A DNA stretch of 64,000 nucleotides. Source: Haplodiscus bocki. Taxonomy: Eukaryota. The stretch's first letter is position 1; every line of letters starts with the position of its first letter. Shown here piece by piece: positions 2,306 to 64,000 of the stretch. The notes beneath the pieces are model-generated. The model was not told the origin of the DNA. It saw only the letters and a list, made by a program, of their open reading frames with translations, and did not search any database. The position numbers and the translations under genes are program-made. The stretch lies in NCBI GenBank assembly GCA_965655095.1, contig OZ296648.1:27404001-27468000 (forward strand). The letters are read 5' to 3'.

Positions 2306-2497
2306 TGTTGTGATCTTTAATACTCGACCGATAACCAGAGATAGGTAACCTCGAAGGAAACAATTACTTGCAAAGATTCAACTCACCTTATATGTATTTA
2401 TATATATTACTGGCACGAACATGTCACCGAAAACAAAAACAAACAACACTTTATATGTGATCAACCGTATCAACTAATAATAGATATAGTCACCACA
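2306..2497 (-). repeat. 3' LTR of gypsy element (LTR1)
   Basis: TGTTG...CCACA termini. Preceded on the minus strand by the PPT AAAAGAAAGAGGGCGAG (2498-2514). ATTAAA poly(A)-type signal 10 nt from the LTR end. Confidence 0.95.
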
Positions 2498-6273: not shown

Positions 6274-6279
6274 GAAAAC

Positions 6280-6293
6280 GTTCGTGCCAGTAA
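6280..6293 (-). promoter_or_regulatory. Primer-binding site complementary to the element's own LTR (also at 10270-10283)
   Basis: Minus strand reads LTR...CAACA-GT-TTACTGGCACGAAC. The exact complement lies in the LTR at 6397-6410 (also 2407-2420; one mismatch at 10387-10400). Confidence 0.8.
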
Positions 6294-6295
6294 AC

Positions 6296-6487
6296 TGTTG
6301 TGATCTTTATTACTCGAACGATAACCAGAGATAGGTAACCTCGAAGGAAACAATTACTTGCAAAGATTCAACTCACCATATATGTATTTATATATATTAC
6401 TGGCACGAACATGTCACCGAAAACAAAAACAAACAACACTTTATATGTGATCAACCGTATCAACTAATAATAGATATAGTCACCACA
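6296..6487 (-). repeat. Shared middle LTR (LTR2), recombinant of LTR1 and LTR3
   Basis: Left part matches LTR3 at 3 diagnostic sites; right part matches LTR1 at 5 diagnostic sites. Confidence 0.95.
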
Positions 6488-10263: not shown

Positions 10264-10285
10264 GAAAACGTTCGTGCCAGTAAAC

Positions 10286-10477
10286 TGTTGTGATCTTTAT
10301 TACTCGAACGATAACCAGAGATAGGTAACCTCGAAGGAAACAATTACTTGCAAAGATTCAACTCACCATATATGTATTTATATATATTACTGGCACGAGC
10401 ATGTCACTGAAAACAAAAACAAACGACACTTTATATATGATCAACCGTATCAACTAATAACAGATATAGTCACCACA
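10286..10477 (-). repeat. 5' LTR of gypsy element (LTR3)
   Basis: TGTTG...CCACA termini followed by the CCTTC TSD. 8 substitutions relative to LTR1 over 192 bp. Confidence 0.95.
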
Positions 10478-31550: not shown

Positions 31551-31783
31551 TTGTTCGCCACTATGGACTGAGTAAAACAAACTTTTGTATAAACAGGTAA
31601 AAGACGTCAGAATTTATGTCGAGCAAACTTTTTAGCGTACAAAATCAGTTTGTAACAGTTATTGAAACAATTAGTTGCTAATCCCTGACAACCTTTTTCT
31701 TGTTGAAGGGAATGTTCTGTTTTCATTATGTTTTCCACATTTATACCTCAATTTTTACTGTCTATCGGTAATTTTCAGAAGCA

Positions 31784-31860
31784 ATGGTCAATTCAGTTGA
31801 AATGGATCATGCTGATAGCAAGCAGCATCATCGTTGGAGCCCCTATGACATGAATGGAGG
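31784..31860 (+). CDS. PSMB1: PSMB1 coding exon 1
   Basis: MVNSVEMDHADSKQHHRWSPYDMNG(G), then donor GTTCGT at 31861 (phase 2). Confidence 0.9.
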
Positions 31861-37800: not shown

Positions 37801-40800
37801 CTCAGGACAAGAGGTGTATATTGGGACTAGGAATGTTCCCTCGAAGAATGCAACAAAATTAGATTTTCGCTACACCACATACGCGGCTTCAATCTTTTGA
37901 GATGCATATTACCGACCATTTTAGTGAACTTGGCTGTTTCACGCTCACAGATGCATTAAAGCAAGTGTAGGCAGACTTTTTGTACGTTAGATTCGTGATT
38001 CAATGGGTTTCGTCGCTCTGCGTTTTTAGCAGGACAGTACAAGGTCGGGCTCATCAAAACAATTTCCCTCCCAAGACTTGAGTTTTGTGGAGCTCATTTA
38101 GGAACTTAACCAAGCGGTGTTTTCGTACTGACAAGTGGCACTGATGTGAAGACATTTGCCTGAGTGGACTGAAACAGTGTTTCAGAATGGCGCGTTTCCA
38201 CAAATGCGAGATGGTAGGCAAATTTTAATGGCAAGAGAATGTCAGAAACTCAAACTTTTCAGCTAAATCACAATGCCTTTACCTGAATTCAGCCAATAAC
38301 CCGGCTAAATGCTCATCTCGTGGATTCACCATGAAAATACTGAAAGATTCGGCGCTCTTATGGAAAGGATCCACTAACCTGGCAAAAGCCGAGAATTGAT
38401 GACATCAACAGAAAATAGCAATCAGTGAAAGAAGGCTGCCAGTAGGTAATGAAAAAACTCAATCAACAACCAAGCCCACCGAGATGGTCGGAAAATCATC
38501 GCCTTCTCCAGGTCCTCGCTATTAGGAGATGGGAAGATATTGCAGCTTCGGGAAACTTTTTTCGGGTGGTTGCTCCACGATTCATCAAAAAACAGACCAT
38601 CTCGAATCTATTTGTCAGTAATCTTCCGCAAGCTGAAATCGAAGTCATTCAAGAACACGAAAAATTTTCTACAAAGCTTAGAGACTTTTGCCGAACATCT
38701 CTGCTGTACGGATAGACAGCAAAATTCACAATTTGTCACCGTGAGATGAAAAAACCAGAACCCTCCGAGTGGCTGAACGCCTGCCCTACGTATGTGTCAG
38801 GAAAATACGAAATTTCCGTCTTTGGTGGACAAAATTTGACGACTGGCTTTTCTAAGTCTGCCGCATTTCCATGAAGCACCTGTTCGTGGCTGGATGAAAT
38901 GACATTGAACTCAAGTCGAGACGAATTCTTGATACGAGGTGGAAGAACTTGGCATAGCATGTGATTATACAGCTTGTCAAATCCAGTCGAATAAAAAAAC
39001 CGTAATAGTGGATGGCCGACTTACCAACAACAAGTAACTTTGTTGAAACAACCATTTCCTTTTAAACTTGTCTGGGCCGCTCCGCTTCTCGCGAAACCTG
39101 TTGTGAAAACGTACGTCGCCACGTTTGTTTTGGGAGTAAAGGCTGTTCTTATTGTATTAATGGATTTGATTAAGGAGGAGTGCATCTCATCAATTAAACG
39201 CATTACTGCGGTTCATGAACTACCAGAGAATGTCATGAGCGAAACTTGTCGTAACTTGATGTGTGCTCGAATTGATTTGATCATGGTTCAGGGAATCTTC
39301 GCAAAATTAATCACAAAAGATCAGTGGGAAGCTTCATGCTTCAACTAGGAGTAAAATGGTGAACTTCCGCGCGCTCCACATTCTGTAGACTGTGAGAAGC
39401 CTCTCACCAGAAAAAAGAACCCCAAATACGGCGAATAGTGTGGACATTTTATTGTTTGAAGAGTTGAATACCTTGGTGGAACAAGTTGAATCAATTCTAA
39501 ATCCAAAATCATTTTTAGCTATGTCGAATGATCCCAATGATCTACAACCGATGATGCTTTGTAATTTCTCTCTCGTTGAAGTAGTCATGGATATCTGAGC
39601 ACACTACTTCAGATGAAATTTTGTCATTGTCTTATGATTTTAGCTGCTTGAAAGACTTAGGAAAGGCTAATGAATGTCGTGGTAACATTAGACAACAGGA
39701 AACGTTGGTTTTTTTCTGGCCCTAGTTTTGCTGCAAACTTATTTTTGACCGACAGGGTTAGTTCACTACCTCTCAGAATGAAAGACTTTACACTGGCATA
39801 ATGACATCAGCAGAGCTAAAATAACAACTGCAACTGGAAGCTTGATTCGACTAATAGTAAAGCCCAGAAGCGTCCTGTTGCGGCGCACAATTGCCAGTGA
39901 GTATGATGGTCAAACGCAACTCAGTAGTGTAATCCGCTTATACCGTGCACGGCTACAGCGTGTAAAGCGTACAGCCGGCTACCACCGACATGTACCGCCA
40001 TCCCGAATAAATTCGGATTAATTTACGTCGTTTATACCTACCATTACATCAGTTATAACGTACGTGTACTTTACCCTCCTTTCTTATTCCCATTACTTCG
40101 CGTTGCTTTTCATTGTCAGAACGCGTTACTTTTTCTCGATAAGAGCGCTTTATTTCTCTATCACTGGAGACAAAAATTAATTAAACTGAAACGTTCGACT
40201 TTACGTTTCAGTTTAATTCAATAAAAATGAAGACTGCTTGGGATTATGTGAAGGAATAAACAATACAAAATTGTTCCGAGAAATCTTGATGTGTGAAAGT
40301 TCCGCAGTGCTCCCTAAACAACTGAAGCTGTTTTGGCGGTGGAACTGCCAAACTTTCAACAATTCGAAGAGACGAGATTCTAAAGATATAGAACGGAATG
40401 GTGAAAAAGCTTCAAAAGTCCTGGAAGACTTTGCCAATCAAAGTGGATGATTTGGTGTTTTCCGATAGTTTTAACCAGTCTGGAGCTTCTTATAAGACAG
40501 CCGCAACAAAAACAACTCACTTTAGAAAATTTGATGAATATAATTCAATTGAGTTGAGGCTTTGAACGCGTTGTTTTTACAAACTTCGGATATAACCAAC
40601 AGAATTTTTCGTTCCGAGGTGTTTTCTATAAGCGGATATCACTGTATCTGGAGAATGTGCCTGACGGGAAAACCATGCAAAATTGTTCAGTTTTTCGAGA
40701 TGTTTTTGTCCGTCCCGATAATACCCCTTTTGATGAATATAGTTACAACCAACACACAGTTCCTTACTACTACTACCTCTACAATTTCTTAGACGCAGAT

Positions 40801-42999
40801 TTCCAGTTGACCTACACAAATTTATTGATTTATGTTTATATGACGCTACAACCAATTTTCTAACGTTCTGGAATTAAACTAGCTTTTGTGTATCAAAAAT
40901 GCCCTGAAGGATGAATTTTTCATTAAGACATACATATTAGCCCCGGCGACCCTTCTAACTTGTCATTCATTGAATTTTGATTAAACTCCAATTTATTACC
41001 TTATTTTTTCCTCAATTCGATTTTATTTCAGACTGCTCAATCAGTTTTACAACTTGAAAAATTATTAATTGAAGTAGAAGTCAACAGATCAACGTACAAG
41101 AAGATTTGATTAGTCACATTTTACTCTAGTCCGAGCATCATCACCTCGGGTCGTTTTCAGCCAGTCACAAAGATATACTTTCCGTTGCCTTGTAGAGACT
41201 TCGAGAATCCAGAAAATGAATTTTTGCATGCTTTGATACTTTAAATCAATAAATATCACCTTCGAATTTGTTCATACCGCTGTTATTGCAATGTACGTAT
41301 GTGTACGTATGTTTGGAAACATTGTAGGGAGATTTTTTGCGTTTCAATTTTTCAAGAAAGGCAAAATTGTAGACTTCGGTATGTTTTCGGAAGAATTAAA
41401 CCTCTGCAATTAACCACGCGATTTTGTTCGTCGAACCGCTAGTTCAAAAGCTATCTGTGATCTACTGGATGCTCTTTCACAGGAATAAGTGCTTGAAGTA
41501 GTGGAAGAAGCAGTAGACGGCGGTCTTTTGGTTTTCATTCGTTCCTTTGCCTCATATGTTATTCCATTTTTCCTTTCTTGTAAATTTTTGCTAACGAAAA
41601 AAATTCTGCTTGGGAATGACGTCACCTTAAGGGTTTTGAATTGTCCAGCAAAGAGTCCTTTTTCTCAAGTTTTGGCTTTTCATTTTTGTTCTGTCTTTTC
41701 CTCCTACCGCAATTGAATGTTTAATGTGGATCATTTCGTTCTGAAGCAAACCTATTTGAATTTTTATTAAATTTTTCATGATGCAAAATATTAACTATCA
41801 AAATTCCTTATTGATAGTTTCCTTTTCTGTGCTCCACTGGAGCCTATTGTTCTTGGAACGTATGACTACACAAGGTATTAACTTGTTTTGTTTTTTTTTT
41901 CGAAAACACCCCGTAAACGATATAAAATTAGGGAAACGGGGTAAACCGATCAGAGAAGAGTATGTGCAATTTTGAAAGATTATAATATAGTGGCAAACTT
42001 ATCGCTGCATGTCTAAATTTGACAGGTAATAGTCAGTATTTGAGACTGGCTCCTGAAAACATGAGTATATTTCATTTAGATGTACGAGTTCGACCATGGT
42101 AAGAAATTGGATACACCTGCGACGGCATCCTTGGTTTCGAAGATGTTATATTCCCGCAGATTTTTCCCCTTGTATGTGTATAACTTAGTTGTGGGATGTG
42201 AGAAAGATCCTGAAACTGGAAATTACCGAGGACTTGTGTACGGATACGACCCAGTTGGCTGTTATGCTTTGGAGCCCTATGGTGCTTACGGAAGTGCGGG
42301 ACCTCTTCTGCAACCTTTACTGGATAATCAAGTATGGATTGTTGCAACTTTATTCTGACCAATACCCTTGGTTTTGAAAGCGGCTTCTTTTCATAATTTT
42401 TCGTATTCACGCGGCTTCCTTGCGTACTTGTTGTTATTTGTTTAAATCGGCGCTTTACTTTCAATAATTTAAAGGGGCTTTACTTTCTCTTTTCGACCAC
42501 CAAATTTTTAAGACTGCAGTTTTGCTTCAATATGCCCAAAATAATCCAGTAGATAAAGAACGTACCAAAGACAAAAGAAGTTTGTCATCCCTTCTGCATA
42601 TACAATTTAAAAAATACCAAAATTTTCCTTGTTACCTCCTTTTCATTTTGTCTTGTACCTCAAGTTTAAGTTCGGGACGTCTGAAGATTTTTTCAAGGAA
42701 TGTAGTCTCTGAGCTCCTTTGCATAAAATGCTATCAGAATAAATCTCCGTTATCGGTTTTTGATCGATTGAAGTATGAATGGTAATCGAGAATCTTTGTT
42801 AATTTGTTTCTAGATAGGCTACAAAAACATGGAGAACCCTAAACGACTTCCTTTGACTAAGGAAAGAGCTGTGTCTTTAATTAAGGATGTGTTCATCTCA
42901 GCAGCGGAACGAGATATTTACAGTGGAGATAAAGCACATGTAGTTGTTGTTGACCAGAATGGCATCCACGAAGACTTCATGCCTTTGAGGCGCGACTGA
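31784..42999 (+). CDS. PSMB1: Proteasome subunit beta type-1 (20S beta6), 4 coding exons, 234 aa
   Basis: Exons 31784-31860, 33403-33592, 42080-42331 and 42814-42999, all with GT-AG introns and consistent phase (705 nt). Protein: ...[30 protein letters not shown]...GFHGDC...LYSRRFFPLYVYN...YDPVG...LLQPLLDNQIGYKN...KDVFISAAERDIYSGD...LRRD*, matching hallmark PSMB1 motifs. Confidence 0.96.
32587..32990. mobile_element. Non-autonomous hAT-like DNA transposon (MITE), 404 bp, in PSMB1 intron 1
   Basis: 15-bp terminal inverted repeats CAAGGATGTTCAAAA / TTTTGAACATCCCTG (14/15). Flanking 8-mers TTTGCGAC and TTTGCAGC (6/8) fit a decayed 8-bp TSD. AT-rich, non-coding interior. Confidence 0.7.
33403..33592 (+). 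CDS. PSMB1: PSMB1 coding exon 2 (not in the ORF track)
   Basis: TTTTTAG acceptor; [63 protein letters not shown]; donor GTTAGT at 33593. Confidence 0.93.
33716..33900 (+). other. Two tandem tRNA-derived (SINE-head-like) sequences, probably tRNA-His related; not functional tRNAs
   Basis: Two copies 120 bp apart share TAGGACAAC.GGGTT.T.AAGCG...GGGTTCGA.TC. The second has A-box TGGCACAGCGG, B-box GGTTCGAATCC and GTTGTG in the anticodon region. Stems do not pair properly. Confidence 0.6.
33935..34320. repeat. ~117-bp minisatellite, ~3.3 copies
   Basis: Unit AAAATCGTGATATCCCCCTCTTATGCATAAAACTTTTCGAT...GAAACACAGAAGGGTTCCCCTACGAAG...GAGACAAAAAAATTCCGACAG starts at 33935, 34058, 34175 and ~34291. 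Confidence 0.92.
35500..39865 (+). mobile_element. Highly decayed BEL/Pao LTR retrotransposon internal region in PSMB1 intron 2; boundaries approximate
   Basis: Collinear remnants: gag LQVPKFD...FMVSV (35547); zinc knuckle LCFICLQ...CKSGSSCWLC (~36255-36330); protease RALPNSASQLSFITE (~36465); RNase H KTISLPRLEFCGAHL (38056-38100) and NPAKCSSRG (~38298); MADLP (~39011); integrase FEELNTLVEQVESILNP...DPNDLQP (~39455-39550); terminal ITTATGSLIRLIVK (~39820-39862). These are BEL/Pao-typical motifs. Confidence 0.88.
42080..42331 (+). CDS. PSMB1: PSMB1 coding exon 3
   Basis: TTTAG acceptor; MYEFDHGKK...LYSRRFFPLYVYN...LQPLLDNQ; donor GTATGG at 42332. Confidence 0.95.
42814..42999 (+). CDS. PSMB1: PSMB1 coding exon 4
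   Basis: TTTCTAG acceptor; IGYKNMENPKRLPLTKERAVSLIKDVFISAAERDIYSGDKAHVVVVDQNGIHEDFMPLRRD-TGA. Confidence 0.95.
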   Translation: MGYKNMENPKRLPLTKERAVSLIKDVFISAAERDIYSGDKAHVVVVDQNGIHEDFMPLRRD

Positions 43000-44299: not shown

Positions 44300-45946
<1,647 letters not shown>

Positions 45947-47949
45947 TGATTGTAGGGAATTCTCATCAGTAACAGTAGTGCAATTATATTCAATGCTGTT
46001 TTATTCTAGTTCGTTTGATTCAATTGAGAGGCAAATAAAAATGTTCATTTCAACCCATATTTTCCCAAAAGTGCCGAGTTTGACAATCAGCTCCAAGGCT
46101 TCAGCGTTAGAACAAACGGGGCACTTTCCAGTAGAGCCCCACAATGTAATCCTAAGTAAATCATGGAATCAATCTTAGAGCGGCTTATGGAATGACCAGC
46201 TTTTGCTTTCTCAATTGAAATGAAACAAAGACCTGCAAAATCTCAGCGACAATTTTTGTAAGTTCCAGGTAGTGATTTGTTCTATTGCGGTGCCAGCTGA
46301 CATTTGCGCTGCAATATCACACTGTGAGCAAAGATGTCGAAGTCAACGCAATTGAATAAACCAGGAATCTTGTGCAAATTTGCTCGTTAACGATGAACCG
46401 AAAAAATACTGTCGAAAACTTTATGAATGTAAGCGTTGTTTGAGGTTGCCCGCCAATTAGGATACGAGATCATAAGTTGTGCTCGCGAATTGGACATTAC
46501 AAATAACCGAATTCAAAATATTTTCATTCTGTATTAGAAAACCAATCTAGATCAAGTATCAAAATCTTGGTTATTTCAAACAACGAAGAGCTTGTGAAAG
46601 CTTTCCGTTCTTTAATCGGACGATCTTTGTTTATGGAAGGAATTTGATCTGCAGTGTTGATTAGTTGAAATTACCAACTGCACAAGAACAATTCTGGCTG
46701 CCAGACAACTTTCCTGTTCGAGAACTCGTAAGTTTTTAGGCAGAAAGAACAGGCAATTCGAAGTCACTATCGTCGGGTCAGCCACTTTCTGATGACGGCA
46801 AATGTCAACACCAAACTTCGGTGTCAACCTGTGTGCGTGCTTACTCCAACTACATCTTCGGTCTCATTCCCATCGGTGTACTCAACGATTAGATTCTAGT
46901 TTTCATTGTCAAGACATTGTTCTGTATGTGGAGCTGGTGAACCTTGAGGGAGTTTTATCGACGGAGGAAACAAACAAGCAAGTATAGAAACGGAAGAATT
47001 TTTTCAAAGTCAGTTCTCAAGAGGAGCAAGAGTTAAACCATTTTTCGCATTAACGGTATCACAGGAGGTGGGTGAACTTGTTCGACTGATGGCTTAGGTT
47101 TCGGAGTTCGGTCGCGCGATAGGCGTGATCAAGAGACTTATGGAAGAAGCAATAAATCCCACAACTCATTGACTCGTTTGCAAAAATTTCGCAAGGTGAT
47201 AACGCAAGTCCGGCAAAAAAAGTGTTGGTTGTATCTATACTACATGTCAGCTATGATGCAAACTTGACGCAATCGATCTACATAGGCACAAATTGACAAT
47301 TTTTCAAAACTGCTAAGTCCATCAATTTTATTGTGTTTTGAGCGACGTTATACAGGATATCTTAAAAATGGGAGCGAATATCATTTTTTTCAGTTGAAAA
47401 CTGGTATTTATTTGATCACTCGACTATCAAATCCAACCTATATTGGAATTCATCTTTGTTAATTATCCTATCTATACGAATAGTTACGTTCGTGGTCTGT
47501 GCTGTTGAAATATAGCATTGCTTTGAATCCAGACGAACTCGGACGATGTTCAATTGGTTGTTACCTAGAGAACAAGATTGTAGAACTGAGTGCTTAAAAT
47601 AGCAATCGGTTTGAAACCAATATCTTGAAAATTGACGTTAGCATCAACTGGTTTTGATGCTGAGAGTGACCACTCATGCAGTTCAAGTTACTCGTCAGTC
47701 CATTCCCTTGAAGCTAAACTTATTGTGCATGGCTCCCGTCAATTGAAAACTGTTTTTGCCACACAGAGTAGAACTGAACAATTGAAAATAGCAAGGGATG
47801 TTTTCCGAAGATTTTTTCTGGTTCAATTAATAACTTTAAATGTTTCTGTATTTTCTGTCACTACAAACGGCCATGTAGTGTGGCTCCAGATTCCGTTCTG
47901 AACTTACCTTTGTCTTTCTACTAGTTCAAAACTCCTACTACTTTAAAAG

Positions 47950-48450
47950 AGATAGATTTAGTTATTGATGGAATAGTTAATGATAATGTCTTTGAAAAAT
48001 CAGACACTGAAATAAACATGTGATAATATAGAAGAACTAAAATAACCTCAAGAATATGAAGATGGAGGAATATTTATACTAGATGATACTAGATACTAGA
48101 TGAAAAAGAAATGAATGATCCGCGAGTAACAGCGATGTCCAAAAGACCGAGACATAATATTTTATCTATTTTTATAAGCAGCCAAGATTACTATGAATTA
48201 CGATAGAGATCGACCCAAGCTAAAGGAGGTATCTACCGCATCTTCAAACCAAACAATTTCAGAGATATTCAAAATCTCTATCAACATAAAACTTCCATGG
48301 TTATGACACTGAACGAATTCAAACACTCAACTAGTAGTTGTTGGGATAAAAAATATCAACCAGTTAAAATTGATATGACAAAAGATAAAAACACAGGTTC
48401 TTTTAGAGTAAGTTCAAATTCAATAACCATACCAGATAGCTCTCTTTTTG
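47950..48450 (+). pseudogene. First copy of the packaging-ATPase fragment (frameshifted, internal stops)
   Basis: Same motifs (GGIFILDD, KRPRHNILSIFISSQDYYEL), broken by an indel near 48015, a small GATACTA duplication at ~48085-48100 and in-frame stops. Confidence 0.7.
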
Positions 48451-51400
48451 AAATTATCGAAGAAGCAATAAGTCACACCACTCATTGACTTGTTTGAAAA
48501 TCTTTCAAAAAATTTAGCAAGGTGCTATCGCAAGTCCGCCAAGAAATGTGCTGGTTGTATCTATACTACATGTAAGCTATGATGCAAACTTAACTCAATT
48601 AATCTACATAGGCACAAAATGACAACAATTTTTTTATCAAAACTGCTAAGTCCATCAAATTTACTTTGTGTTTTGAGCGACATTATATAAGATATCTTAA
48701 AAATGGGAGCGAATATCATTTTTTCAGTTGAAAACTGGTATTTATTTGATCACTCGACTATCAAATCCAACCTATATTGGCATTCATCTTTGTTGTTTAT
48801 CCTATCTATACGAATAGTTACGTTCGTGGTCTGTGCTGTTGAAATATAGCATTGCTTTGAATCCAGACGAACTCCGACGATGTTTAAATGTTTGTTACTT
48901 AGAGAACAAGATTGTAAAACTGAGTTTAAAAAAAGCAATCGGTTTCAAACCAATATCTCGAAAACTGACATTAGCATCAAGTGGTTTTGATGCTGAGGGT
49001 GACCCCTCATGCAGTTCAAGTTACTCGTCAGTCCATTCCCTTGAAGCTAAACTTATTAAGCATGGCTCCCGTCAATTGAAAACTGTTTTTGCCCCACAGA
49101 GTGGAAATGAACAATTGAAAATAGCAAGGGATATTTTCCGAAGATTTTTTCTGGTTCAATTATTGACTTTAAGTGTTTCTGTAATTTCTGTCACTACAAA
49201 CGGCCATGTAGTGTGGCTCCAAATTCCGGTCTAAACTTACCGTTGTCTTTCTACTAGTTCAAAAGTCCTACTACTTTAAAAGAGATAGATTTAGTTATTG
49301 ATGGAATAGTTTATGATAATGTCTTTGAAAAATCAGACACTGAAATAGGAACATGTGATGATATAGAAGAACTAAAATAACCTCAAGAAGATGAAGATGG
49401 AGGAATATTAATACTAGATGATCTCAATGAAAACGAAGTGAATGATCCGCGAGTAACAGCGATGTTCAAAAGACCGAGACATAAAATTTCATCTATTTTT
49501 AAAAGCAGCCAAGATTACTATGAATTACGAAAGAGATCGACCCAAGCTAATGGAGGTATCTACCGCATCTTCAAACCAAACATTTTCAGAGATATTAAAA
49601 ATCTCTATCAACATAAAACTTCCATGGATATGACACTGAACGAATTCAAACACTCAACAAGTAGCTGTTGGGATGAAAAATATCAACCATTTACAATTGA
49701 TATGACAAAAGATAAAAACACAGGTTTTTTTAGATTAAGTTTAAATTCAACATTCATACCAGATAGCTCTCTTTTTTAAATTATCGAAGAAGCAATAAGT
49801 CCCACCACTCATTGACTCGTTTGAAAAAATTTCAAAAATTTTAGCAAGGTGCTATCGCAAGTCCGCCAAAAAATGTGCTGGTTGTATCTATACTACATGT
49901 AAGCTATGATGAAAACTTAACTCAATTGATCTACATAGGCACAAAATGAAAACAATTTTTTTATCAAAACTGCTAAGTCCATCAAATTTACTTTGTGTTT
50001 TGAGCGACATTATATAAGATATCTTGAAAATGGGAGCGAATATCATTTTTTCAGTTGAAAACTGGTATTTAATTGATCACTCGACTATCAAATCCAACCT
50101 ATATTGGCATTCATCCTTGTTAATCATCCTATCTATACGAATAGTTACGTTCGTGGTCTGTGCTGTTAAAATATAGCATTGCTTTGAATCCAGACGAACT
50201 CGGACGATGTTCAATTGGTTGTTACCTAGAGAACAAGATTGTAGAACTGAGTGCTTAAAAAAGAAATCGGTTTCAAACCAATATCTCGAAAATTGACGTT
50301 AGCATCAACTGGTTTTGATGCTGAGGGTGACCACTCATGCAGTTCAAGTTACTCGTCAGTCCATTCCCTTGAAGCTAAACTTATTGTGCATGGCTCCCGT
50401 CAATTGAAAACTGTTTTTGCCACACAGAGTAGAACTGAACAATTGAAAATAGCAAGGGATGTTTTCCGAAGAATTTTTCTGGTTCAATTATTAACTTCAA
50501 GTGTTTCTGTAATTTCTGTCACTACAAACGGCCATGTAGTGTGGCTCCAAATTCCGGTCTGAACTTACCGTTGTCTTTCTACTAGTTCAAAAGTCCTACT
50601 ACTTTAAAAGAGATAGATTTAGTTATTGATGGAATAGTTTATGATAATGTCTTTGAAAAATCAGACACTGAAATAGGAACATGTGATGATATAGAAGAAC
50701 TAAAATAACCTCAAGAAGATGAAGATGGAGGAATATTAATACTAGATGATCTCAATGAAAACGAAGTGAATGATCCGCGAGTAACAGCGATGTTCAAAAG
50801 ACCGAGACATAAAATTTCATCTATTTTTAAAAGCAGCCAAGATTACTATGAATTACGAAAGAGATCGACCCAAGCTAATGGAGGTATCTACCGCATCTTC
50901 AAACCAAACATTTTCAGAGATATTAAAAATCTCTATCAACATAAAACTTCCATGGATATGACACTGAACGAATTCAAACACTCAACAAGTAGCTGTTGGG
51001 ATGAAAAATATCAACCATTTACAATTGATATGACAAAAGATAAAAACACAGGTTTTTTTAGATTAAGTTTAAATTCAACATTCATACCAGATAGCTCTCT
51101 TTTTTAAATTATCGAAGAAGCAATAAGTCCCACCACTCATTGACTCGTTTGAAAAAATTTCAAAAATTTTAGCAAGGTGCTATCGCAAGTCCGCCAAAAA
51201 ATGTGCTGGTTGTATCTATACTACATGTAAGCTATGATGCAAACTTAACTCAATTGATCTACATAGGCACAAAATGACAACAATTTTTTTTATCAAAACT
51301 GCTAAGTCCATCAAATTTACTTTGTGTTTTGAGCGACATTATATAAGATATCTTAAAAATGGGAGCGAATATCATTTTTTCAGTTGAAAACTGGTATTTA

Positions 51401-54400
51401 TTTGATCACTCGACTATCAAATCCAACCTATATTGGCATTCATCTTTGTTAATCATCCTATCTATACGAATAGTTACGTTCGTGGTCTGTGCTGTTGAAA
51501 TATAGCATTGCTTTGAATCCAGACGAACTCCGACGATGTTTAAATGTTTGTTACTTAGAGAACAAGATTGTAAAACTGAGTGCTTAAAAAAGCAATCGGT
51601 TTCAAACCAATATCTCGAAAACTGACATTAGCATCAAGTGGTTTTGATGCTGAGGGTGACCCCTCATGCAGTTCAAGTTACTCGTCAGTCCATTCCCTTG
51701 AAGCTAAACTTATTAGGCATGGCTCCCGTCAATTGAAAACTGTTTTTGCCACACAGAGTGGAAATGAACAATTGAAAATAGCAAGGGATATTTTCCGAAG
51801 AATTTTTCTGGTTCAATTATTGACTTTAAGTGTTTCTGTAATTTCTGTCACTACAAACGGCCATGTAGTGTGGCTCCAAATTCCGGTCTAAACTTACCGT
51901 TGTCTTTCTACTAGTTCCAAAGTTCTACTACTTTAAAAGAGGTAGATTCAGTTATTGATGGAATAGTTAATGATAATGTCTTGGATAAATCAGACACTGA
52001 AATAGAAACATGTGATAATATAGAAGGACTAAAATAACCTCAAAAACATGAAGATGGAGGAATATTTATACTAGATGATCTCAATGAAAAAGAAGTGAAT
52101 GATCCGCGAGTAACAGCGATGTTCAAAAGACCGAGACATAAAATTTCACCTTTTTTTAAAAGCAGCCAAGATTACTATGAATTACGAAAGAGATCGACCC
52201 AAGCTAAAAGAGGTATGTACCGCATCTTCAATCCAAACAATTTCAGAGATATTCAAAATCTCTATCAACATAAAACTTCCATGGATATGACACTGAACGA
52301 ATTCAAACACTCAACAAGTAGCTGTTGGGATGAAAAATATCAGCCATTTACAATTGACATGACAAAAGATAAAAACACAGGTTCTTTAGATTAAGTTTAA
52401 ATTCAACATTCATACCAGATAGCTCTCTTTTTTAAATTATCGAAGAAGCAATAAGTCCCACCACTCATTGACTCGTTTGAAAAAATTTCAAAAATTTTAG
52501 CAAGGTGCTATCGCAAGTCCGCCAAAAAATGTGCTGGTTGTATCTATATTACATGTAAGCTATGATGCAAACTTAACTCAATTGCTCTACATAGGCACAA
52601 AATGACAACAATTTTTTTATCAAAACTGCTAAGTCCATCAAATTTACTTTGTGTTTTGAGCGACATTATATAAGATATCTTGAAAATGGGAGCGAATATC
52701 ATTTTTTCAGTTGAAAACTGGTATTTAATTGATCACTCGACTATCAAATCCAACCTATATTGGCATTCATCTTTGTTAATCATCCTATCTATACGAATAG
52801 TTACGTTCGTGGTCTGTGCTGTTGAAATATAGCATTGCTTTGAATCCAGACGAACTCCGACGATGTTTAAATGTTTGTTACTTAGAGAACAAGATTGTAA
52901 AACTGAGTGCTTAAAAAAGCAATCGGTTTCAAACCAATATCTCGAAAACTGACATTAGCATCAAGTGGTTTTGATGCTGAGGGTGACCCCTCATGCAGTT
53001 CAAGTTACTCGTCAGTCCATTCCCTTGAAGCTAAACTTATTAGGCATGGCTCCCGTCAATTGAAAACTGTTTTTGCCACACAGAGTGGAAATGAACAATT
53101 GAAAATAGCAAGGGATATTTTCCGAAGAATTTTTCTGGTTCAATTATTGACTTTAAGTGTTTCTGTAATTTCTGTCACTACAAACGGCCATGTAGTGTGG
53201 CTCCAAATTCCGGTCTAAACTTACCGTTGTCTTTCTACTAGTTCCAAAGTTCTACTACTTTAAAAGAGGTAGATTCAGTTATTGATGGAATAGTTAATGA
53301 TAATGTCTTGGATAAATCAGACACTGAAATAGAAACATGTGATAATATAGAAGGACTAAAATAACCTCAAAAACATGAAGATGGAGGAATATTTATACTA
53401 GATGATCTCAATGAAAAAGAAGTGAATGATCCGCGAGTAACAGCGATGTTCAAAAGACCGAGACATAAAATTTCACCTTTTTTTAAAAGCAGCCAAGATT
53501 ACTATGAATTACGAAAGAGATCGACCCAAGCTAAAAGAGGTATGTACCGCATCTTCAATCCAAACAATTTCAGAGATATTCAAAATCTCTATCAACATAA
53601 AACTTCCATGGATATGACACTGAACGAATTCAAACACTCAACAAGTAGCTGTTGGGATGAAAAATATCAGCCATTTACAATTGACATGACAAAAGATAAA
53701 AACACAGGTTCTTTAGATTAAGTTTAAATTCAACATTCATACCAGATAGCTCTCTTTTTTAAATTATCGAAGAAGCAATAAGTCCCACCACTCATTGACT
53801 CGTTTGAAAAAATTTCAAAAATTTTAGCAAGGTGCTATCGCAAGTCCGCCAAAAAATGTGCTGGTTGTATCTATATTACATGTAAGCTATGATGCAAACT
53901 TAACTCAATTGCTCTACATAGGCACAAAATGACAACAATTTTTTTATCAAAACTGCTAAGTCCATCAAATTTACTTTGTGTTTTGAGCGACATTATATAA
54001 GATATCTTGAAAATGGGAGCGAATATCATTTTTTCAGTTGAAAACTGGTATTTAATTGATCACTCGACTATCAAATCCAACCTATATTGGCATTCATCAT
54101 TGTTAATCATCCTATCTATACGAATAGTTACGTTCGTGGTCTGTGCTGTTAAAATATAGCATTGCTTTGAATCCAGACGAACTCGGACGATGTTCAATTG
54201 GTTGTTACCTAGAGAACAAGATTGTAGAACTGAGTGCTTAAAAAAGAAATCGGTTTCAAACCAATATCTCGAAAATTGACGTTAGCATCAACTGGTTTTG
54301 ATGCTGAGGGTGACCACTCATGCAGTTCAAGTTACTCGTCAGTCCATTCCCTTGAAGCTAAACTTATTGTGCATGGCTCCCGTCAATTGAAAACTGTTTT

Positions 54401-55896
54401 TGCCACACAGAGTAGAACTGAACAATTGAAAATAGCAAGGGATGTTTTCCGAAGAATTTTTCTGGTTCAATTATTAACTTCAAGTGTTTCTGTAATTTCT
54501 GTCACTACAAACGGCCATGTAGTGTGGCTCCAAATTCCGGTCTGAACTTACCGTTGTCTTTCTACTAGTTCAAAAGTCCTACTACTTTAAAAGAGATAGA
54601 TTTAGTTATTGATGGAATAGTTTATGATAATGTCTTTGAAAAATCAGACACTGAAATAGGAACATGTGATGATATAGAAGAACTAAAATAACCTCAAGAA
54701 GATGAAGATGGAGGAATATTAATACTAGATGATCTCAATGAAAACGAAGTGAATGATCCGCGAGTAACAGCGATGTTCAAAAGACCGAGACATAAAACTT
54801 CATCTATTTTTAAAAGCAGCCAAGATTACTATGAATTACGAAAGAGATCGACCCAAGCTAATGGAGGTATCTACCGCATCTTCAAACCAAACATTTTCAG
54901 AGATATTAAAAATCTCTATCAACATAAAACTTCCATGGATATGACACTGAACGAATTCAAACACTCAACAAGTAGCTGTTGGGATGAAAAATATCAACCA
55001 TTTACAATTGATATGACAAAAGATAAAAACACAGGTTCTTTTAGATTAAGTTTAAATTCAACATTCATACCAGATAGCTCTCTTTTTTAAATTATCGAAG
55101 AAGCAATAAGTCCCACCACTCATTGACTCGTTTGAAAAAATTTCAAAAATTTTAGCAAGGTGCTATCGCAAGTCCGCCAAAAAATGTGCTGGTTGTATCT
55201 ATACTACATGTAAGCTATGATGCAAACTTAACTCAATTGATCTACATAGGCACAAAATGACAACAATTTTTTTATCAAAACTGCTAAGTCCATCAAATTT
55301 ACTTTGTGTTTTGAGCGACATTATATAAGATATCTTAAAAATGGGAGCGAATATCATTTTTTCAGTTGAAAACTGGTATTTATTTGATCACTCGACTATC
55401 AAATCCAACCTATATTGGCATTCATCTTTGTTAATCATCCTATCTATACGAATAGTTACGTTCGTGGTCTGTGCTGTTGAAATATAGCATTGCTTTGAAT
55501 CCAGACGAACTCCGACGATGTTTAAATGTTTGTTACTTAGAGAACAAGATTGTAAAACTGAGTGCTTAAAAAAGCAATCGGTTTCAAACCAATATCTCGA
55601 AAACTGACATTAGCATCAAGTGGTTTTGATGCTGAGGGTGACCACTCATGCAGTTCAAGTTACTCGTCAGTCCATTCCCTTGAAGCTAAACTTATTGTGC
55701 ATGGCTCCCGTCAATTGAAAACTGTTTTTGCCACACAGAGTAGAACTGAACAATTGAAAATAGCAAGGGATGTTTTCCGAAGAATTTTTCTGGTTCAATT
55801 ATTAACTTCAAGTGTTTCTGTAATTTCTGTCACTACAAACGGCCATGTAGTGTGGCTCCAAATTCCGGTCTGAACTTACCGTTGTCTTTCTACTAG

Positions 55897-56454
55897 TTCA
55901 AAAGTCCTACTACTTTAAAAGAGATAGATTTAGTTATTGATGGAATAGTTAATGATAATGTCTTTGAAAAATCAGACACTGAAATAGGAACATGTGATGA
56001 TATAGAAGAACTAAAAAAACCTCAAGAAGATGAAGATGGAGGAATATTAATACTAGATGATCTCAATGAAAACGAAGTGAATGATCCGCGAGTAACAGCG
56101 ATGTTCAAAAGACCGAGACATAAAATTTCATCTATTTTTAAAAGCAGCCAAGATTACTATGAATTACGAAAGAGATCGACCCAAGCTAATGGAGGTATCT
56201 ACCGCATCTTCAAACCAAACATTTTCAGAGATATTAAAAATCTCTATCAACATAAAACTTCCATGGATATGACACTGAACGAATTCAAACACTCAACTCG
56301 TAGTTGTTGGGATAAAAAATATCAACCATTTACAATTGATATGACAAAAGATGAAAACACAGGTTCTTTTAGATTAAGTTCAAATTCAATATTCATACCA
56401 GATAGCTCTCTTTTTGAAATTATCGAAGAAGCAATAAGTCCCACCACTCGTTGA
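55897..56454 (+). pseudogene. N-terminally truncated A32-like/FtsK-HerA packaging ATPase fragment (Polinton/Maverick-adintovirus type); longest open copy of a fragment found in every 1,327-bp unit
   Basis: Open frame EIDLVIDGIVNDNVFEKSDTEIGTCDDIEELKKPQEDEDGGILILDDLNENEVNDPRVTAMFKRPRHKISSIFKSSQDYYELRKRSTQANGGIYRIFK. It has Walker B hhhDD, the RH-x-x-x-S-hhh-x-Q motif and the downstream R/AN region typical of these ATPases. No Walker A. Family recognised from motifs only. Confidence 0.78.
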
Positions 56455-59400
56455 CTCGTTTGAAAAAATTTCAAAAAATTTAGCAAGGTGCTATCGCAAG
56501 TCCGCCAAAAAATGTGCTGGTTGTATCTATACTACATGTAAGCTATGATGCAAACTTAACTCAATTGATCTACATAGGCACAAAATGACAACAATTTTTT
56601 TATCAAAACTGCTAAGTCCATCAAATTTCCTTTGTGTTTTGAGCGACATTATATAAGATATCTTAAAAATGGGAGCGAATATCATTTTTTCAGTTGAAAA
56701 CTGTTATTTAATTGATCACTCGACTATCAAATCCAACCTATATTGGCATTAATCTTTGTTAATCATCCTATCTATACGAATAGTTACGTTCGTGGTCTGT
56801 GCTGTTAAAATATAGCATTGCTTATAATCCAGACGAACTCCGACGATGTTTAATTGGTTGTTACCTAGAGAACAAGACTGTAAAACTGAGTGCTTAAAAA
56901 AGCTATCGGTTTCAAACCAATATCTCGAAAATTGACGTTAGCATCAAGTGGTTTTGATGCTGAGGGTGACCACTCATGCAGTTCAAGTTACTCCTCAGTC
57001 CATTCCCTTGAAGCTAATTTTATTGTGTATGGCTCCCGTCAATTGAAAACTGTTTTTGCCACACAGAGTGGAACTGAACAATTGAAAGTAGCAAGGGATG
57101 TTTTCCGAAGAATTTTTCTGGTTCAATTATTGACTTTAAATGTTTCTGTAATTTCTGTCACTACAAACGGCCATGTAGTGTGGCTCCAAATTCCGGTCTA
57201 AAGTTACCGTTGTCTTTCTACTAGTTCAAAATTTCTACTACTTTAAAAAAGATAGATTTAATTTTTGATGGAAAAATTAATGATAATGTCCTTGAAAAAA
57301 CAGACACTGAAATAGAAATATGTGATAATATAGAAGAACTAAAATAACCTCAAGAATATGAAGATGGAGGAATATTTATACTAGATGATCTCAATGAAAA
57401 AGAAATGAATGATCCGCGAGTAACAGCGATGTTCAAAAGACCGAGACATAATATTTTAGCTATTTTTATAAGCAGCCAAGCTTACTTTGAATTACGAAAG
57501 GGATCGACCCAATCTAATGGAGGTATCTACCGCATCTTCAAACCAAACAATATCAGAGATATTCAAAATCTCTATCAACATAAAACTTCCATGGATATGA
57601 CACTGAATGAATTCAAATGCTCAACTAGTAGTTGTTGGGATAAAAAATATCAACCATTTACAATTGATATGACAAAAGATAAAAACAAAGATTCTTTTAG
57701 ATTAAGTTTAAATTCAATATTCATACCAGATAGCTCGCTTTTCTAAATTATCGAAGAAGCAATAAGTCCCACCACTCATTGACTCGTTTGAAAATATTTC
57801 AAAAAATTTAGCAAGGTGCTATCGCAAGTCCGCCAAAAAATGTGCTGGTTGTATCTATACTACATGTAAGCTATGATGCAAACTTAACTCAATTGATCTA
57901 CATAGGCACAAAATGACAACAATTTTTTTATCAAAACTGATAAGTCCATCAAATATACTTTGTGTTTTGAGCGACATTATATAAGATATCTTAAAATTGG
58001 AGCAAATATCATTTTTTCAGTTGAAAACTGGTACTTATTTGATCACTCGACTATCAAATCCAACCTATATTGGAATTCATTTTTGTTAATCATCCTATCT
58101 AAACGAAAAGTTTTGTTCATGGTCTCTGCTGTTGAAATATAGCATTGCTTTGAATCCAGACGAATTCCGACGATGTTTAATTGGTTGTTACCTAGAGAAC
58201 AGGATTGTGAAACTGAGTGCTTAAAAAAGCAATCGGTTTCAAACCAATATCTCGAAAATTGCCGTTAGCATCAACTGGTTTAGATGCTGAGGGTGACCAC
58301 TCATGCAGTTCAAGTTACTCGTCAGTCCATTCCCTTGAAGCTAAACTTATTGTGCATGGCTCCCGTCAATTGAAATCTGTTTTTGCCACACAGTGGAACT
58401 GAACAATTGCAAATAGCAAGGGATGTTTTCCGAAGAATTTCTCTGGTTCAAATATTGACTTTAAGTGTTTTTCTAACTTCTGTCACTACAAACGGCCATG
58501 TAGTGTGGCTCCAAAATCCGGTCTAAACTTACCGTTGTCTTTCTACTAGTTCAAAATTTGTACTACTTTAAAAGAGATAGATTCAGTTAATGATGGAATA
58601 GTTAATGATAATGTCTTTGAAAAATCAGACACTGAAATAAAAGCATGTGATAATATAGAAGAACTAAAAAACCTCAAAAATATGAAGATGGAGGAATATT
58701 TATACTAGATGATCTCAATGAAAAAGAAATGAATGATCCGCGAGTAACAGCGATGTTCAAAAGACCGAGACATAATATTTTATCTATTTTTATAAGCAAC
58801 CAAGCTTACTATGAATTACGAAAGAGATCGACCCAAGCTAATGGACGTATCTACCGCATCTTCAAACCAATCAATTTCAGAGATGTTCAAAATCTCTATC
58901 AACATAAAAGTTCCATGGATATGACATTGAACGAATTCAAATACTCAACTTGTAGTTGTTGGGATAAAAAATATCAACCATTTACAATTGATGTGACAAG
59001 ATATAAAAACACAGGTTCTTATAGATTAAGTTCAAATTCAATATTCATAGCAGATAGCTCTCTTTTTTAAATTATCGAAGAAGCAATCAGTCCCACCACT
59101 CACTGACTCGTTTGAAGGAATTTCAAAAAATTTAGCAAGGTGCTATCTCAAGTCCGCCAAAAAATGTGCTGGTTGTATCTTTACTACATGTAAGCTATGA
59201 TGCAAACTTAACTCAATTGATCTACATAGGCACAAATTGACAATAATTTTTGTATCAAAACTGCTAAGTACATCAAATTTACTTTCTGTTTTGAGCGACA
59301 TTATATAGGATGTCCTAAAATTGGGAGCAAATATCATTTTTTCAGTTGAAAACTGTTACTTATTTGATCACTCGACTATCAAATCCAACCTATATTGGAA

Positions 59401-62400
59401 TTCATCTTTGTTAACTATCCTATCTATACGAAAAGTTACGTTCATGGTCTGTGCTGTTGAAAAATAGCATTGCTTATAATCCAGACGAACTCCGACGATG
59501 TTTAATTGGTTGTTACCTAGAGAACAAGATTGTAAAACTGAGTGCTTAAAATAGCAATCGGTTTGAAACCAATATCTCGAAAATTGACGTTAGCATCAAC
59601 TGGTTTTGATGCTGAGGGTGACCACTCATGCAGATCAAGTTACTCGTCAGTCCATTCCCTTGAAGCTAAACTTATTGTGCATGGCTCCTGTCAATTTAAA
59701 ACTGTTTTTGCCACACAGAGTGGAACTGAACAATTGAAAATAGTAAAGGATGTTTTCCGAAGAAGTTTTCTGGTTCAATTATTGACTTTAAGTGTTTCTG
59801 TAATTTCTGTCACCACAAACGGCCATGTAGTGTGGCTCCAAAATCCGGTCTAAACTTACCGTTGTCTTTCTACTAATTCAAAATTTGTACTACTTTAAAA
59901 GAGATAGATTTAGTTTTTGATGGAATAGTTAATGATATTGTCTTTGAAAAATCAGACACTGAAATAGAAACATATGATAATATAGAAGAACTAAAAAACC
60001 TCAAGAATATGAAGATGGAGGAATATTTTTACTAGATGATCTAAATGAAAAAGAAATGAATGATCCGTGAGTAACAGCGATGTTCAAAAGACCGAGACAT
60101 AATCTTTTATCTATTTTTATAAGCAACCAAGCTTACTATGAATTACGAAAGAGATCGACCCAAGCTAATGGAGGTATCTACCGCATCTTCAAACCAATCA
60201 ATTTCAGAGATTTTTAAAATCTCTATCAACATAAAAGTTCCATGGATATGACATTGAACGAATTCAAATACTCAAGTTGTAGTTGTTGGGATAAAAAATA
60301 TCAACCATTTACAATTGATATGACAAGATATAAAAACACAGGTTCTTATAGATTAAGTTCAAGTTCAATATTCATACCAGATAGCTCTCTTTTTTAAATT
60401 ATCGAAGAAGCAATAAGTCCCACCACTCATTGACTCGTTTGAAGAAATTTAAAAAATTTAGCATGGTGCTATCTCAAGTCCGCCAAAAAATGTGCTGGTT
60501 GTATCTTTACTACATGTAAGCTATGATGCAAACTTAACTCAATTGATCTACATAGGCACAAATTGACAATAATTTTTGTATTAAAACTGCTAAGTACATC
60601 AAATTTACTTTCTGTTTTGAGCGACATTATATAGGATATCTTAAAATTGGGAGCAAATATCATTTTTTCAGTTGAAACCTGGTACTTATTTGATCACTCG
60701 ACTATCAAATCCAACCTATATTGGAATTCATCTTTGTTAACTATCCTATCTATACGAAAAGTTACGTTCATGGTCTGTGCTGTTGAAATATAGCATTGCT
60801 TATAATCCAGACGAACTCCGACGATGTTTAATTGGTTGTTACCTAGAGAACAAGATTGTAAACCTGAGTGCTTAAAATAGCAATCGGTTTGAAACCAATA
60901 TCTCGAAAATTGACGTTAGCATCAACTGGTTTTGTTGCTGAGGGTGACCACTCATGCAGATCAAGTTACTCGTCAGTCCATTCCCTTGGAGCTAAACTTA
61001 TTGTGCATGGCTCCTGTCAATTTAAAACTGTTTTTGCCACACAGAGTGGAACTGAACAATTGAAAATAGCAAGGGATGTTTTCCGAAGAAGTTTTCTGGT
61101 TCAATTATTGACTTTAAGTGTTTCTGTAGTTTCTGTCACCACAAACGGCCATGTAGTGTGGCTCCAAATTCAGGTCTATACTTACCGTTGTCTTTCTACT
61201 AGTTCAAAATTTCTACTATTTTAAAAGAGATAGTTTTAGTTATTGATGGAATAGTTAATGATAATGTCTTTGAAAAATCAGACACTGAAATAGAAGCATG
61301 TGATAATATAGATGAATTAAAATAACCTCAAGAATATGAAGATGGAGGAAATTTATTCTAGATGAACTCAATGGAAAAGAAATGAATGATCCTCGAGTAA
61401 CAGCGATGTTCAAAAGACCGAGACATAATAATTTATCTATTTTTATAAGCAGCCAAGATTACTATGAATTACAAAAGAGATCGACCCAAGCTAATGGAGG
61501 TATCTACCGCATATTCAAACCAAACAATTTCAGAGATATTCGAAATCTCTATCAACATAAAACTTCCATGGATATGACACTGAACGAATTCAAATAATCA
61601 ACTAGTAGTTGTTGGGATTAAAAATATCAACCATTTACAATTGTTATGACAAAAGATAAAAACACAGGTTCTTTTAAAATAAGTTTAAATTCAATTTTCA
61701 TACCAGATAGCTCTCCTTTTTGACTTATTGAAGAAGCAATAATTCCCACCACTCATTGACTGGTTTGAAAATATTTCAAAAATATCAACAAGGAGCCATC
61801 GCAAGTCCGTTAAAAAATGTGCTGGTTGTATCTATACTACATGTAAGCTATAATGCAAACTTAACTCAATTGATCTACATAGGCACAAATTGACAATAAT
61901 TTTTGTATTAAAACTGCTAAGTACATCAAATTTACTTTCTGTTTTGAGCGACATTATATAGGATATCTTAAAATTGGGAGCAAATATCATTTTTTCAGTT
62001 GAAACCTGGTACTTATTTGATCACTCGACTATCAAATCCAACCTATATTGGAATTCATCTTTGTTAATTATCCTATCTATACGAAAAGTTACGTTCATGG
62101 TCTGTGCTGTTGAAATATAGCATTGCTTATAATCCAGACGAACTCCGACGATGTTTAATTGGTTGTTACCTAGAGAACAAGATTGTAAACCTGAGTGCTT
62201 AAAATAGCAATCGGTTTGAAACCAATATCTCGAAAATTGACGTTAGCATCAACTGGTTTTGTTGCTGAGGGTGACCACTCATGCAGATCAAGTTACTCGT
62301 CAGTCCATTCCCTTGGAGCTAAACTTATTGTGCATGGCTCCTGTCAATTTAAAACTGTTTTTGCCACACAGAGTGGAACTGAACAATTGAAAATAGCAAG

Positions 62401-64000
62401 GGATGTTTTCCGAAGAAGTTTTCTGGTTCAATTATTGACTTTAAGTGTTTCTGTAGTTTCTGTCACCACAAACGGCCATGTAGTGTGGCTCCAAATTCAG
62501 GTCTATACTTACCGTTGTCTTTCTACTAGTTCAAAATTTCTACTATTTTAAAAGAGATAGTTTTAGTTATTGATGGAATAGTTAATGATAATGTCTTTGA
62601 AAAATCAGACACTGAAATAGAAGCATGTGATAATATAGATGAATTAAAATAACCTCAAGAATATGAAGATGGAGGAAATTTATTCTAGATGAACTCAATG
62701 GAAAAGAAATGAATGATCCTCGAGTAACAGCGATGTTCAAAAGACCGAGACATAATAACTTATCTATTTTTATAAGCAGCCAAGATTACTATGAATTACA
62801 AAAGAGATCGACCCAAGCTAATGGAGGTATCTACCGCATATTCAAACCAAACAATTTCAGAGATATTCGAAATCTCTATCAACATAAAACTTCCATGGAT
62901 ATGACACTGAACGAATTCAAATAATCAACCAGTAGTTGTTGGGATTAAAAATATCAACCATTTACAATTGTTATGACAGAAGATAAAAACACAGGTTCTT
63001 TTAGAATAAGTTTAAATTCAATTTTCATACCAGATAGCTCTCCTTTTTGACTTATTGAAGAAGCAATAATTCCCACCACTCATTGACTGGTTTGAAAATA
63101 TTTCAAAAATATCAACAAGGAGCCATCGCAAGTCCGTTAAAAAATGTGCTGGTTGTATCTATACTACATGTAAGCTATAATGCAAACTTAACTCAATTGA
63201 TCTACATTGGCACAAAATGATAACAATTTTTTTAACAAAACTGCTAAGTCCATCAAATTTACTTTGTGTTTTGAGCGACATTATATAGGATATCTTGAAA
63301 TTGGGAGCAAATATCGTTTTTTCAGTTGAAAACTGGTACTTATTTGATCACTCGTTTATCAAATCCAACCTATATTGGAATTCATCTTTGTTAATCATCC
63401 TATCTATACGAAAAGTTACGTTCGTGGTCTGTGCTGTTGAAACATAGCATTGCTTCGAAACCAGACGAACTCCGACGATGTTTAATCGGTTGTTAACTAA
63501 AACACAAGATTGTAAAACTGAGTGCTTAAAAAAGCAATCGGTTTCAAACCAATATCTCGAGAATTGATGTTAGCATCAACTGGTTTTGATGCTGAGGGTG
63601 CCCACTCATGCAGTTCAAGTTACTCGCCAGTCCATTACCTTGAAGCTAATTTTATTGTGCATGGCTCCCGTCAATTGAAAACTGTTTTTGCCACACAGAG
63701 TGGAACTGAACAATTGAAAATAGCAAGGGATGTTTTCCGAAGAATTTTTCTGGTTCAATTATTGACTTTAAGTGTTTCTGTAATTTCTGTCACTACAAAC
63801 GGCGATGTAGTGTGGCTCCAAATTCCGGTCTAAACTTACCGTTGTCTTTCTACTAGTTCAAAATTTCTACTACTTTAAAAGAGATAGATTTAGTTATTGA
63901 TGGAATAGTTAATGATAATGTCTTTGAAAAATCATACACTGAAATAGAAACAAGTGATAAAATAGAAGAACTAAAATAACCTCAAGAATATGAAGATGGA

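Follow-up and report, generated by a model that had tools for sequence, protein, structure and literature searches.

A tandem array of host DNA and a Polinton packaging-ATPase fragment, probably a functionless satellite that arose beside a local Polinton insertion

Satellite DNA arises by tandem amplification of whole transposable elements or of parts of them, and unequal crossover and non-allelic recombination expand it (PMC9659126); that review describes repetitive non-coding parts of elements (TIRs, LTRs) as the commoner source, and its available text makes no mention of Polintons. Satellites derived from Polintons are nevertheless already known from published descriptions, as LmiSat34-299 of Locusta migratoria is homologous to Polinton coding sequence (PMC4935994) and CgiSat52 of Crassostrea gigas has a 1656-bp monomer labelled DNA/Polinton (PMC8268682). 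Polintons themselves, according to the available accounts, are recognized by their size, inverted repeats, 6-bp duplications, (AGT)2 ends, integrase, capsid and ATPase (PMC10748475, PMC8097293), and 96% of the vertebrate copies are described as degraded fossils (PMC8097293). What is new in the locus described here is a 30-bp Polinton terminus beside an array of this kind, and we consider it probable that the array is a functionless satellite, born of rearrangements at one end of a Polinton formerly inserted next to a block of host DNA.

The window, the whole stretch of 64,000 nucleotides that was analysed, is G000:C1:27404001-27468000 of a 1.5-Gb genome. Self-BLAST of the window revealed head-to-tail repeats from 47138 to its end, in which a host part of ~800 bp (A) alternates with an ATPase fragment (B). 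The portion inside the window (47138..64000, plus strand, as for all features placed within the window below) has a period of ~1327 bp and comprises 12 whole units, the thirteenth A and the start of the thirteenth B; successive units begin at intervals of 1316-1328 bp, and identity among the 12 complete ones is 92.3-99.7%. The right end of the array was located outside the window, at window-equivalent 70494 (G000:C1:27474494), where the final copy is an A (L023:6690-7494). The full array has the form A(BA)17, with 18 A and 17 B copies over ~23.4 kb. An earlier note, made from the letters of this stretch, had described a ~1.3-kb tandem array expanded at least 12-fold; self-BLAST and unit spacing bear out the array and its expansion, and the number of copies is corrected to 17 B and 18 A. 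A genome search with A gave 18 matches, all of them inside C1:27451157-27474491, and a search with B found 17 matches of 92-100% identity inside the array, followed by dispersed ones at 77-81%. The head-to-tail monomers with homology to a transposable element are those expected of a TE-derived satellite, and a single small array of 23 kb at one locus falls short of the long arrays or several loci of a mature satellite.

An assembly artefact is an unlikely explanation of the array, because its junctions are bridged by contigs of public sequencing runs: all four runs have contigs across the left junction, three of the four listed have them across the right junction, and the second public sample has them across a B|A junction. 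The four runs come from one study with at most two samples, which are possibly the assembly's own source. In the second sample's run the depth of A relative to the flank is ~7-fold, and no contig listed for it spans the right junction; the three runs of the other sample give ~17-20-fold. These values are contig depths rather than copy numbers, and they hint at individual variation in the copy number of the array as a lead only. No RNA run was listed among the public datasets with matching contigs, an outcome that carries no information on expression.

By similarity, B is a piece of a Polinton A32-type packaging ATPase that covers residues 78-243. The frame at 55897-56451 is 68% identical (113/166) over those residues to a 243-aa ATPase of the same genome, and Pox_A32 was matched by all three full-length ATPases from this genome that were searched, including the 243-aa protein (E 1.4e-12 to 5.6e-9). 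The B fragment alone had no match in Pfam at E<=1 and nothing significant in PHROG and PDB, and in the ESM Atlas clusters that score highest with it (0.97) Pox_A32 is assigned to 11-23% of the members. The identity of B rests on its full-length relatives because the fragment alone gave no significant match; the profile comparison that the earlier note had proposed for the frame at 55897-56454 thus succeeded for the relatives but not for the fragment, and together with the 68% match it upholds the note's reading of a Polinton/virus-type packaging ATPase. The note had placed the fragment in the C-terminal half of the protein, which is correct as to the end but not the extent, since residues 78-243 amount to two-thirds of it. 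The 77 N-terminal residues are missing, and the Walker A pattern G-x4-GK[ST], which had been reported as lacking, is absent from all six frames of the array. The motifs quoted from the array are present in it, but they are a composite and none occurs in all 17 B copies (ILDDL in 13/17, FKRPRH in 15/17, LSIFISSQDYYEL in 3/17 and IFIPDSS in 6/17). As the note had also proposed, the fragment ends at about its own stop at the unit junction, where the ATPase stop region abuts the start of A.

Related full-length elements, a search for which had been suggested, were found in the genome as two Polintons of ~18 kb with integrase and capsid. They belong to a family of hundreds of dispersed Polintons, which have integrase and capsid, inverted repeats of ~400 bp and target-site duplications of 6 bp. 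An exact search of the genome with a 32-base Walker-B pattern gave 332 matches (control 0), and 5 of the 11 ATPase loci that were fetched contain the pattern, which suggests that the ATPase copies number at least several hundred; the 12,669 ATPase candidates returned by the genome search are not a copy number. The two elements read end to end measure ~18.2-18.4 kb and carry inverted repeats of 397 and 439 bp (97% and 96% identical), and additional inverted-repeat pairs lie 18-20 kb apart, all within the 13-25 kb and the 100-1500-bp repeats of Polintons. Both elements have 6-bp duplications and AGTAGT ends, in keeping with the usual 5-8-bp target-site duplications and (AGT)2/(ACT)2 ends, both yield an integrase match (rve, E 7.3e-13 and 5.5e-12), and a double jelly-roll major capsid (PF21738, E 2.3e-16) accompanies the A32-type ATPase. 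An open reading frame that is a candidate protein-primed DNA polymerase B had no match in Pfam, PHROG or PDB and resembles polymerase in ESM Atlas only (score 0.98; 30/30 matches in DNA_pol_B_2 clusters, with the family on 24-35% of members). The adenain protease candidate matched Peptidase_C5 only at E 0.13, the candidate minor capsid frame matched no capsid family, and a pattern search of IMG/VR gave two matches, neither of which was confirmed. Over the ATPase segment, the elements share a mean identity of 83.3% with each other, versus 78.6% between B and the elements.

In contrast to a functional A32/FtsK-HerA ATPase, which carries Walker A and Walker B in one open frame, 16 of the 17 B copies are disrupted ahead of Walker B, which occupies codons 44-48. 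Of the 17 copies, 14 have a stop at codon 33, in agreement with the note's statement that a stop usually lies upstream of this motif; two further copies have a 1-bp deletion ahead of Walker B, and one copy is open. The first ATPase fragment, B1 (47949..48453), has stops at codons 33 and 84 and two indels. The sole copy open over the whole fragment is B7 (55921..56419), which covers ATPase residues 78-243 and has no Walker A; it sits inside a clade of broken copies, and its open frame is therefore likely secondary.

The other part of the unit is single-copy host DNA outside the array, as is the 1.1-kb left flank. The first copy, A1 (47138..47921), is joined to this flank, which matches the genome once (itself), and the continuity that the earlier note saw between the first copy's non-ATPase part and a unique flank is confirmed. 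A1 has no Pfam or Rfam match and no copies beyond the array. Queries with A were negative in Pfam (six frames), in Rfam and in two protein-level searches of the genome. An LTR or other dispersed repeat was ruled out by the absence of copies beyond the array in DNA and protein searches, and a receptor-like or other host exon was rejected in view of no six-frame Pfam match, no paralogue and no Rfam match. The genome DNA search omitted the query's own copies in the case of the window's second array and can thus miss repeats, so the case for A being unique draws on the protein searches and the low contig depth as well, the summed depth of public-run contigs over A being on the order of the array copy number and far below that over B.

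We also weighed whether the unit might have been amplified for a product, either a truncated ATPase that would act as a dominant-negative restriction factor or a peptide of the 103-codon open frame in A (55562..55873 in copy 7). The 185-codon open frame of one B copy would favour this, and the A frame is free of stops in 16/18 copies, with a frame of such length arising in 85/2000 shuffles of A. However, nearly all B copies are interrupted before they reach Walker B, and their dN/dS is not below 1: it is 1.63 among the B copies versus 0.17 among 11 dispersed elements, and a second count, by a method that is biased upward, gave 1.66 (bootstrap 1.03-3.05). The A frame likewise shows no sign of purifying selection, with a dN/dS of 2.2 (1.3-5.5) and two observed stops against ~3 expected from a stop share of 4.6%. 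One copy is frameshifted, neither Pfam nor the genome beyond the array yielded a relative, and we read the frame as a product of chance. Amplification for a coding function is consequently an extremely improbable explanation, one that the substitution pattern already largely refutes. The low dN/dS among the dispersed elements points to past purifying selection on the Polinton family.

The history of the copies is consistent with neutral decay. In a tree with the 11 dispersed loci, the 17 B copies come out together as a single clade (100/100) whose base is open, and neighbouring copies cluster: B2-7, B9-10, B11-12 and B13-16 each group together, as expected from local homogenisation. The star-like base of this tree of B copies is equally compatible with a rolling-circle burst and with serial unequal exchange. 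The trees of A and B are partly discordant, as expected from crossovers within units. At 14/243 columns that are invariant among the elements, at least 15 of the 17 B copies differ from them (8.4% per copy overall), and these shared differences, together with the shared stop at codon 33, indicate that much of the decay preceded amplification. A and B vary to a similar extent (214/802 columns, 26.7%, versus 130/499, 26.1%). Changes at third positions of B are mildly deficient (p=0.02 uncorrected; phase test p=0.054), a deficit to which a dN/dS above 1 rather than about 1 can apparently be traced and which is opposite to the effect of protein-level constraint. Variable sites fall on 60/249 (24%) of the element-invariant positions of B and on 70/250 (28%) of the others (Fisher p=0.36), and by these measures B shows no constraint.

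This pattern bears on the proposal, raised in the earlier note, that a captured viral piece was kept as a memory locus. TE fragments in clusters supply piRNA pathways in animals, and the array could similarly be transcribed, perhaps as a dual-strand cluster, perhaps through transcription that continues from a polyubiquitin gene lying 1.2 kb upstream of it, to yield piRNAs or siRNAs against resident Polintons, its copy number having been selected for dose. The potential target family is abundant, the inverted repeats of some members are 96-97% identical, and of the 79-80 26-mers sampled from each of four B copies, 20-23 match one of 11 dispersed loci with no more than two mismatches. Yet the figure is higher for a dispersed element set against the other 10 (41/79 26-mers), a comparison that covers 11 of hundreds of elements, and the sequence was not found to be kept similar to its target, as would be expected of a piRNA/siRNA source: B is not better conserved than A, and element-invariant sites are not significantly spared. 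Moreover, ~60% of each unit is non-viral, and 17 scraps would contribute little beside hundreds of longer copies. Because B and the polyubiquitin gene have the same orientation, read-through would be expected to give the sense strand of B. A small-RNA memory function is thus very unlikely in our judgement. The same low probability attaches to a variant in which a host block with a promoter or processing signal and an ATPase scrap, amplified 17-fold, would supply guides against Polintons with young members, as a memory locus observed soon after its origin in a local insertion. The hundreds of fuller and better-matching copies and the unprotected element-invariant sites weaken the memory claim of the note, and the piece more likely comes from a decayed local Polinton; its other suggestion, that of neutral satellite birth, fits the data.

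The junctions of the array and the sequence past its right end are informative as to its origin. The A|B junction (47914..47948) contains an imperfect 17-bp tandem duplication of the last bases of A, which is found at all 17 internal A|B junctions and is missing after the last A. At the B|A junction (48445..48465) the ATPase stop region passes into the start of A with an overlap of ~3-4 bases. The overlap at the A|B junction is of 2 bases, or of an imperfect 6, in AT-rich DNA, and the repair pathway is therefore not identifiable from overlaps so short and AT-rich. The recognizable Polinton content of the units is the ATPase fragment; the array itself has no paired termini, polymerase, integrase or capsid, which agrees with the note as regards polB, integrase and capsid. 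Its statement that no TIR is present is true inside the window but not just past the right end of the array, where a 30-bp remnant of a Polinton terminus (window-equivalent 70513-70542; L023:7513-7542) matches natural termini at 26/30 positions, with no partner found. This terminus begins 18 bases after the point at which the last A diverges from the units. Among the three termini (>=24/30) present in 113 kb it scores highest, the maximum in 20 shuffles being 22/30, and from the density of termini we estimate the chance of finding one within 20 bases and in the same orientation at ~3 in 10,000. Directly past the remnant lies a truncated gypsy gag fragment, and the 30 bases are missing from all four gypsy relatives. 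The two other termini in the 113 kb bound a separate Polinton remnant of 10.3 kb, located 8.6 kb to the right, which was considered as the donor and discarded, as it has its own two termini and its own 6-bp duplication and is not linked to the array. No ATPase was found in eight neighbouring 10-kb loci, and no far end of a donor with a matching 6-bp duplication within ~42 kb to the right. In the two full-length elements, the position equivalent to B lies 3.5-4.7 kb inside the terminus and the ATPase points away from that terminus, as B does.

The presence of a Polinton terminus 18 bases past the last A favours a local donor, and most likely B derives from a Polinton inserted at the site of the array rather than from a distant virus. 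It is conceivable, though we think it unlikely, that B was instead copied from a Polinton elsewhere during break repair, either by templated insertion with duplication of A or by rolling-circle amplification of a circle of A and B, and that the terminus at the right end is an unrelated insertion. Candidate donors would be plentiful, given the hundreds indicated by the Walker-B pattern, and the short overlaps at both junction types and the star-like base of the B tree would suit such routes. However, a distant donor requires that a second Polinton landed ~18 bases from the A|B boundary in a unit of 1327 bp, and no close donor was found, the best dispersed ATPases being 79-82% identical to B among the best 40 of 3887 candidates scored. 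The array begins and ends with A, an observation counted in favour of a local origin; counted against it is the loss of the donor, such that B cannot be matched to it.

For the local origin we infer the following course of events. First, a Polinton would have landed just after A, ATPase end first, and then decayed. Second, the stretch between the start of A and the ATPase stop would have been duplicated in tandem, creating the B|A junction. Third, a deletion in the first copy could have fused the end of A to the middle of the ATPase, giving the A|B junction with its local 17-bp duplication and leaving the arrangement A-B-A-terminus; the second and third steps may have been one template-switching event. 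Fourth, the two copies of A would have served as direct repeats for unequal crossing-over, which could have raised the number of B copies to 17. Finally, a later deletion would have stripped away the donor except for 30 bp, along with part of the gypsy element. Tandem duplication is routine in this genome, as is shown by a second array in the window, with a 1967-bp unit, and by the closely spaced ATPase pairs checked elsewhere, 7-10 kb apart, all three of which are tandem duplications. Among the first 100 of the 332 pattern matches listed, ATPase clusters with a spacing below 5 kb are confined to the array.

As a neutral array the locus matters little in itself, although it would be a tidy case of a kilobase-scale satellite that starts at a transposon-host junction, and it serves as a warning that viral motifs in tandem arrays are to be expected where Polintons number in the hundreds and tandem duplication is frequent. 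Of more use than the array is a by-product of the analysis, namely an abundant and diverse Polinton family with ~83% identity between copies over the ATPase segment. If small RNAs from the array did act on Polintons, it would be a testable memory locus that arose from a local insertion. Our literature search, which covered few subscription papers, found neither a chimeric host/Polinton-ATPase array nor a Polinton small-RNA array. Endogenous viral elements that produce piRNAs are known chiefly from mosquitoes. Like them, the present locus has a piece of viral sequence set in repeat-rich animal DNA, but it differs in that it contains one fragment of a resident and abundant family rather than pieces of varied exogenous viruses, and in that its sequence shows no constraint.

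The dispersed family shares the Polinton/Maverick features set out in the available descriptions (PMC10748475, PMC8097293), whereas the array consists of two-thirds of one gene with the adjoining 30 bp of one terminus. In contrast to the TE-derived repeats emphasized in the accessible text of PMC9659126, the source of the array is coding sequence. The satellites of locust and oyster, as far as they are described (PMC4935994, PMC8268682), resemble it in being tandem monomers homologous to a Polinton; compared with those descriptions of LmiSat34-299 and CgiSat52, the array is a single locus of 17 units, is a chimera of host and Polinton DNA, and has ends and a donor terminus that can be read.

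The variable columns of the main tandem array were compared by codon phase in both parts of its unit, the ~800-bp host part (A) and the Polinton ATPase fragment (B), across window positions 47138-64000 and the stretch carrying the array's right end (L023). In B, one of the three phases held fewer variable columns (53/46/31; p within 0.05-0.11), and in two stretches of A one phase was likewise poorer (29/28/15 and 52/51/34; each p 0.05-0.11). The low-variability phase was not common to B and the two A stretches, variable columns were flat across phases when A was taken whole (p = 0.22), and no open frame accounts for the pattern.

The main array lies ~1.2 kb downstream of the end of a polyubiquitin gene (window 44315-45940, plus strand), whose introns fall within its monomers. 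A gene for a proteasome beta subunit has exons at about 31770-42360 of the window, also on the plus strand (Pfam Proteasome, E 4.4e-12 and 1e-6), and within this gene region is a 117-bp tandem repeat of 3.2 copies (33954-34321). A second, single-locus tandem array covers window positions 1-29388 and starts at contig position G000:C1:27402161 (L070:8161); its 1967-bp unit is present in ~12 copies of 92-99% identity and is matched elsewhere in the genome by short stretches only. Inside it lies a minus-strand gypsy retrotransposon (window 2306-10477) in the order LTR-internal-LTR-internal-LTR, with two copies 99.8% identical, LTRs of ~190 bp with TG...CA ends, a 5-bp target duplication and, in both copies, a gag-pol spread across three frames.

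At window-equivalent 79161-89439 (L024:6161 to L025:6439) there is a decayed 10.3-kb Polinton which retains both termini, a 6-bp target duplication and polymerase-like and integrase remnants; an ATPase was not found in it. The Polinton terminal repeat (L028:1-330) is internally palindromic, bases 1-108 returning inverted at about 221-330. Polinton ATPases also lie within 7-10-kb tandem duplications, 96-99% identical, at three further loci of this genome (L102-L103, L104-L106 and L107-L109).
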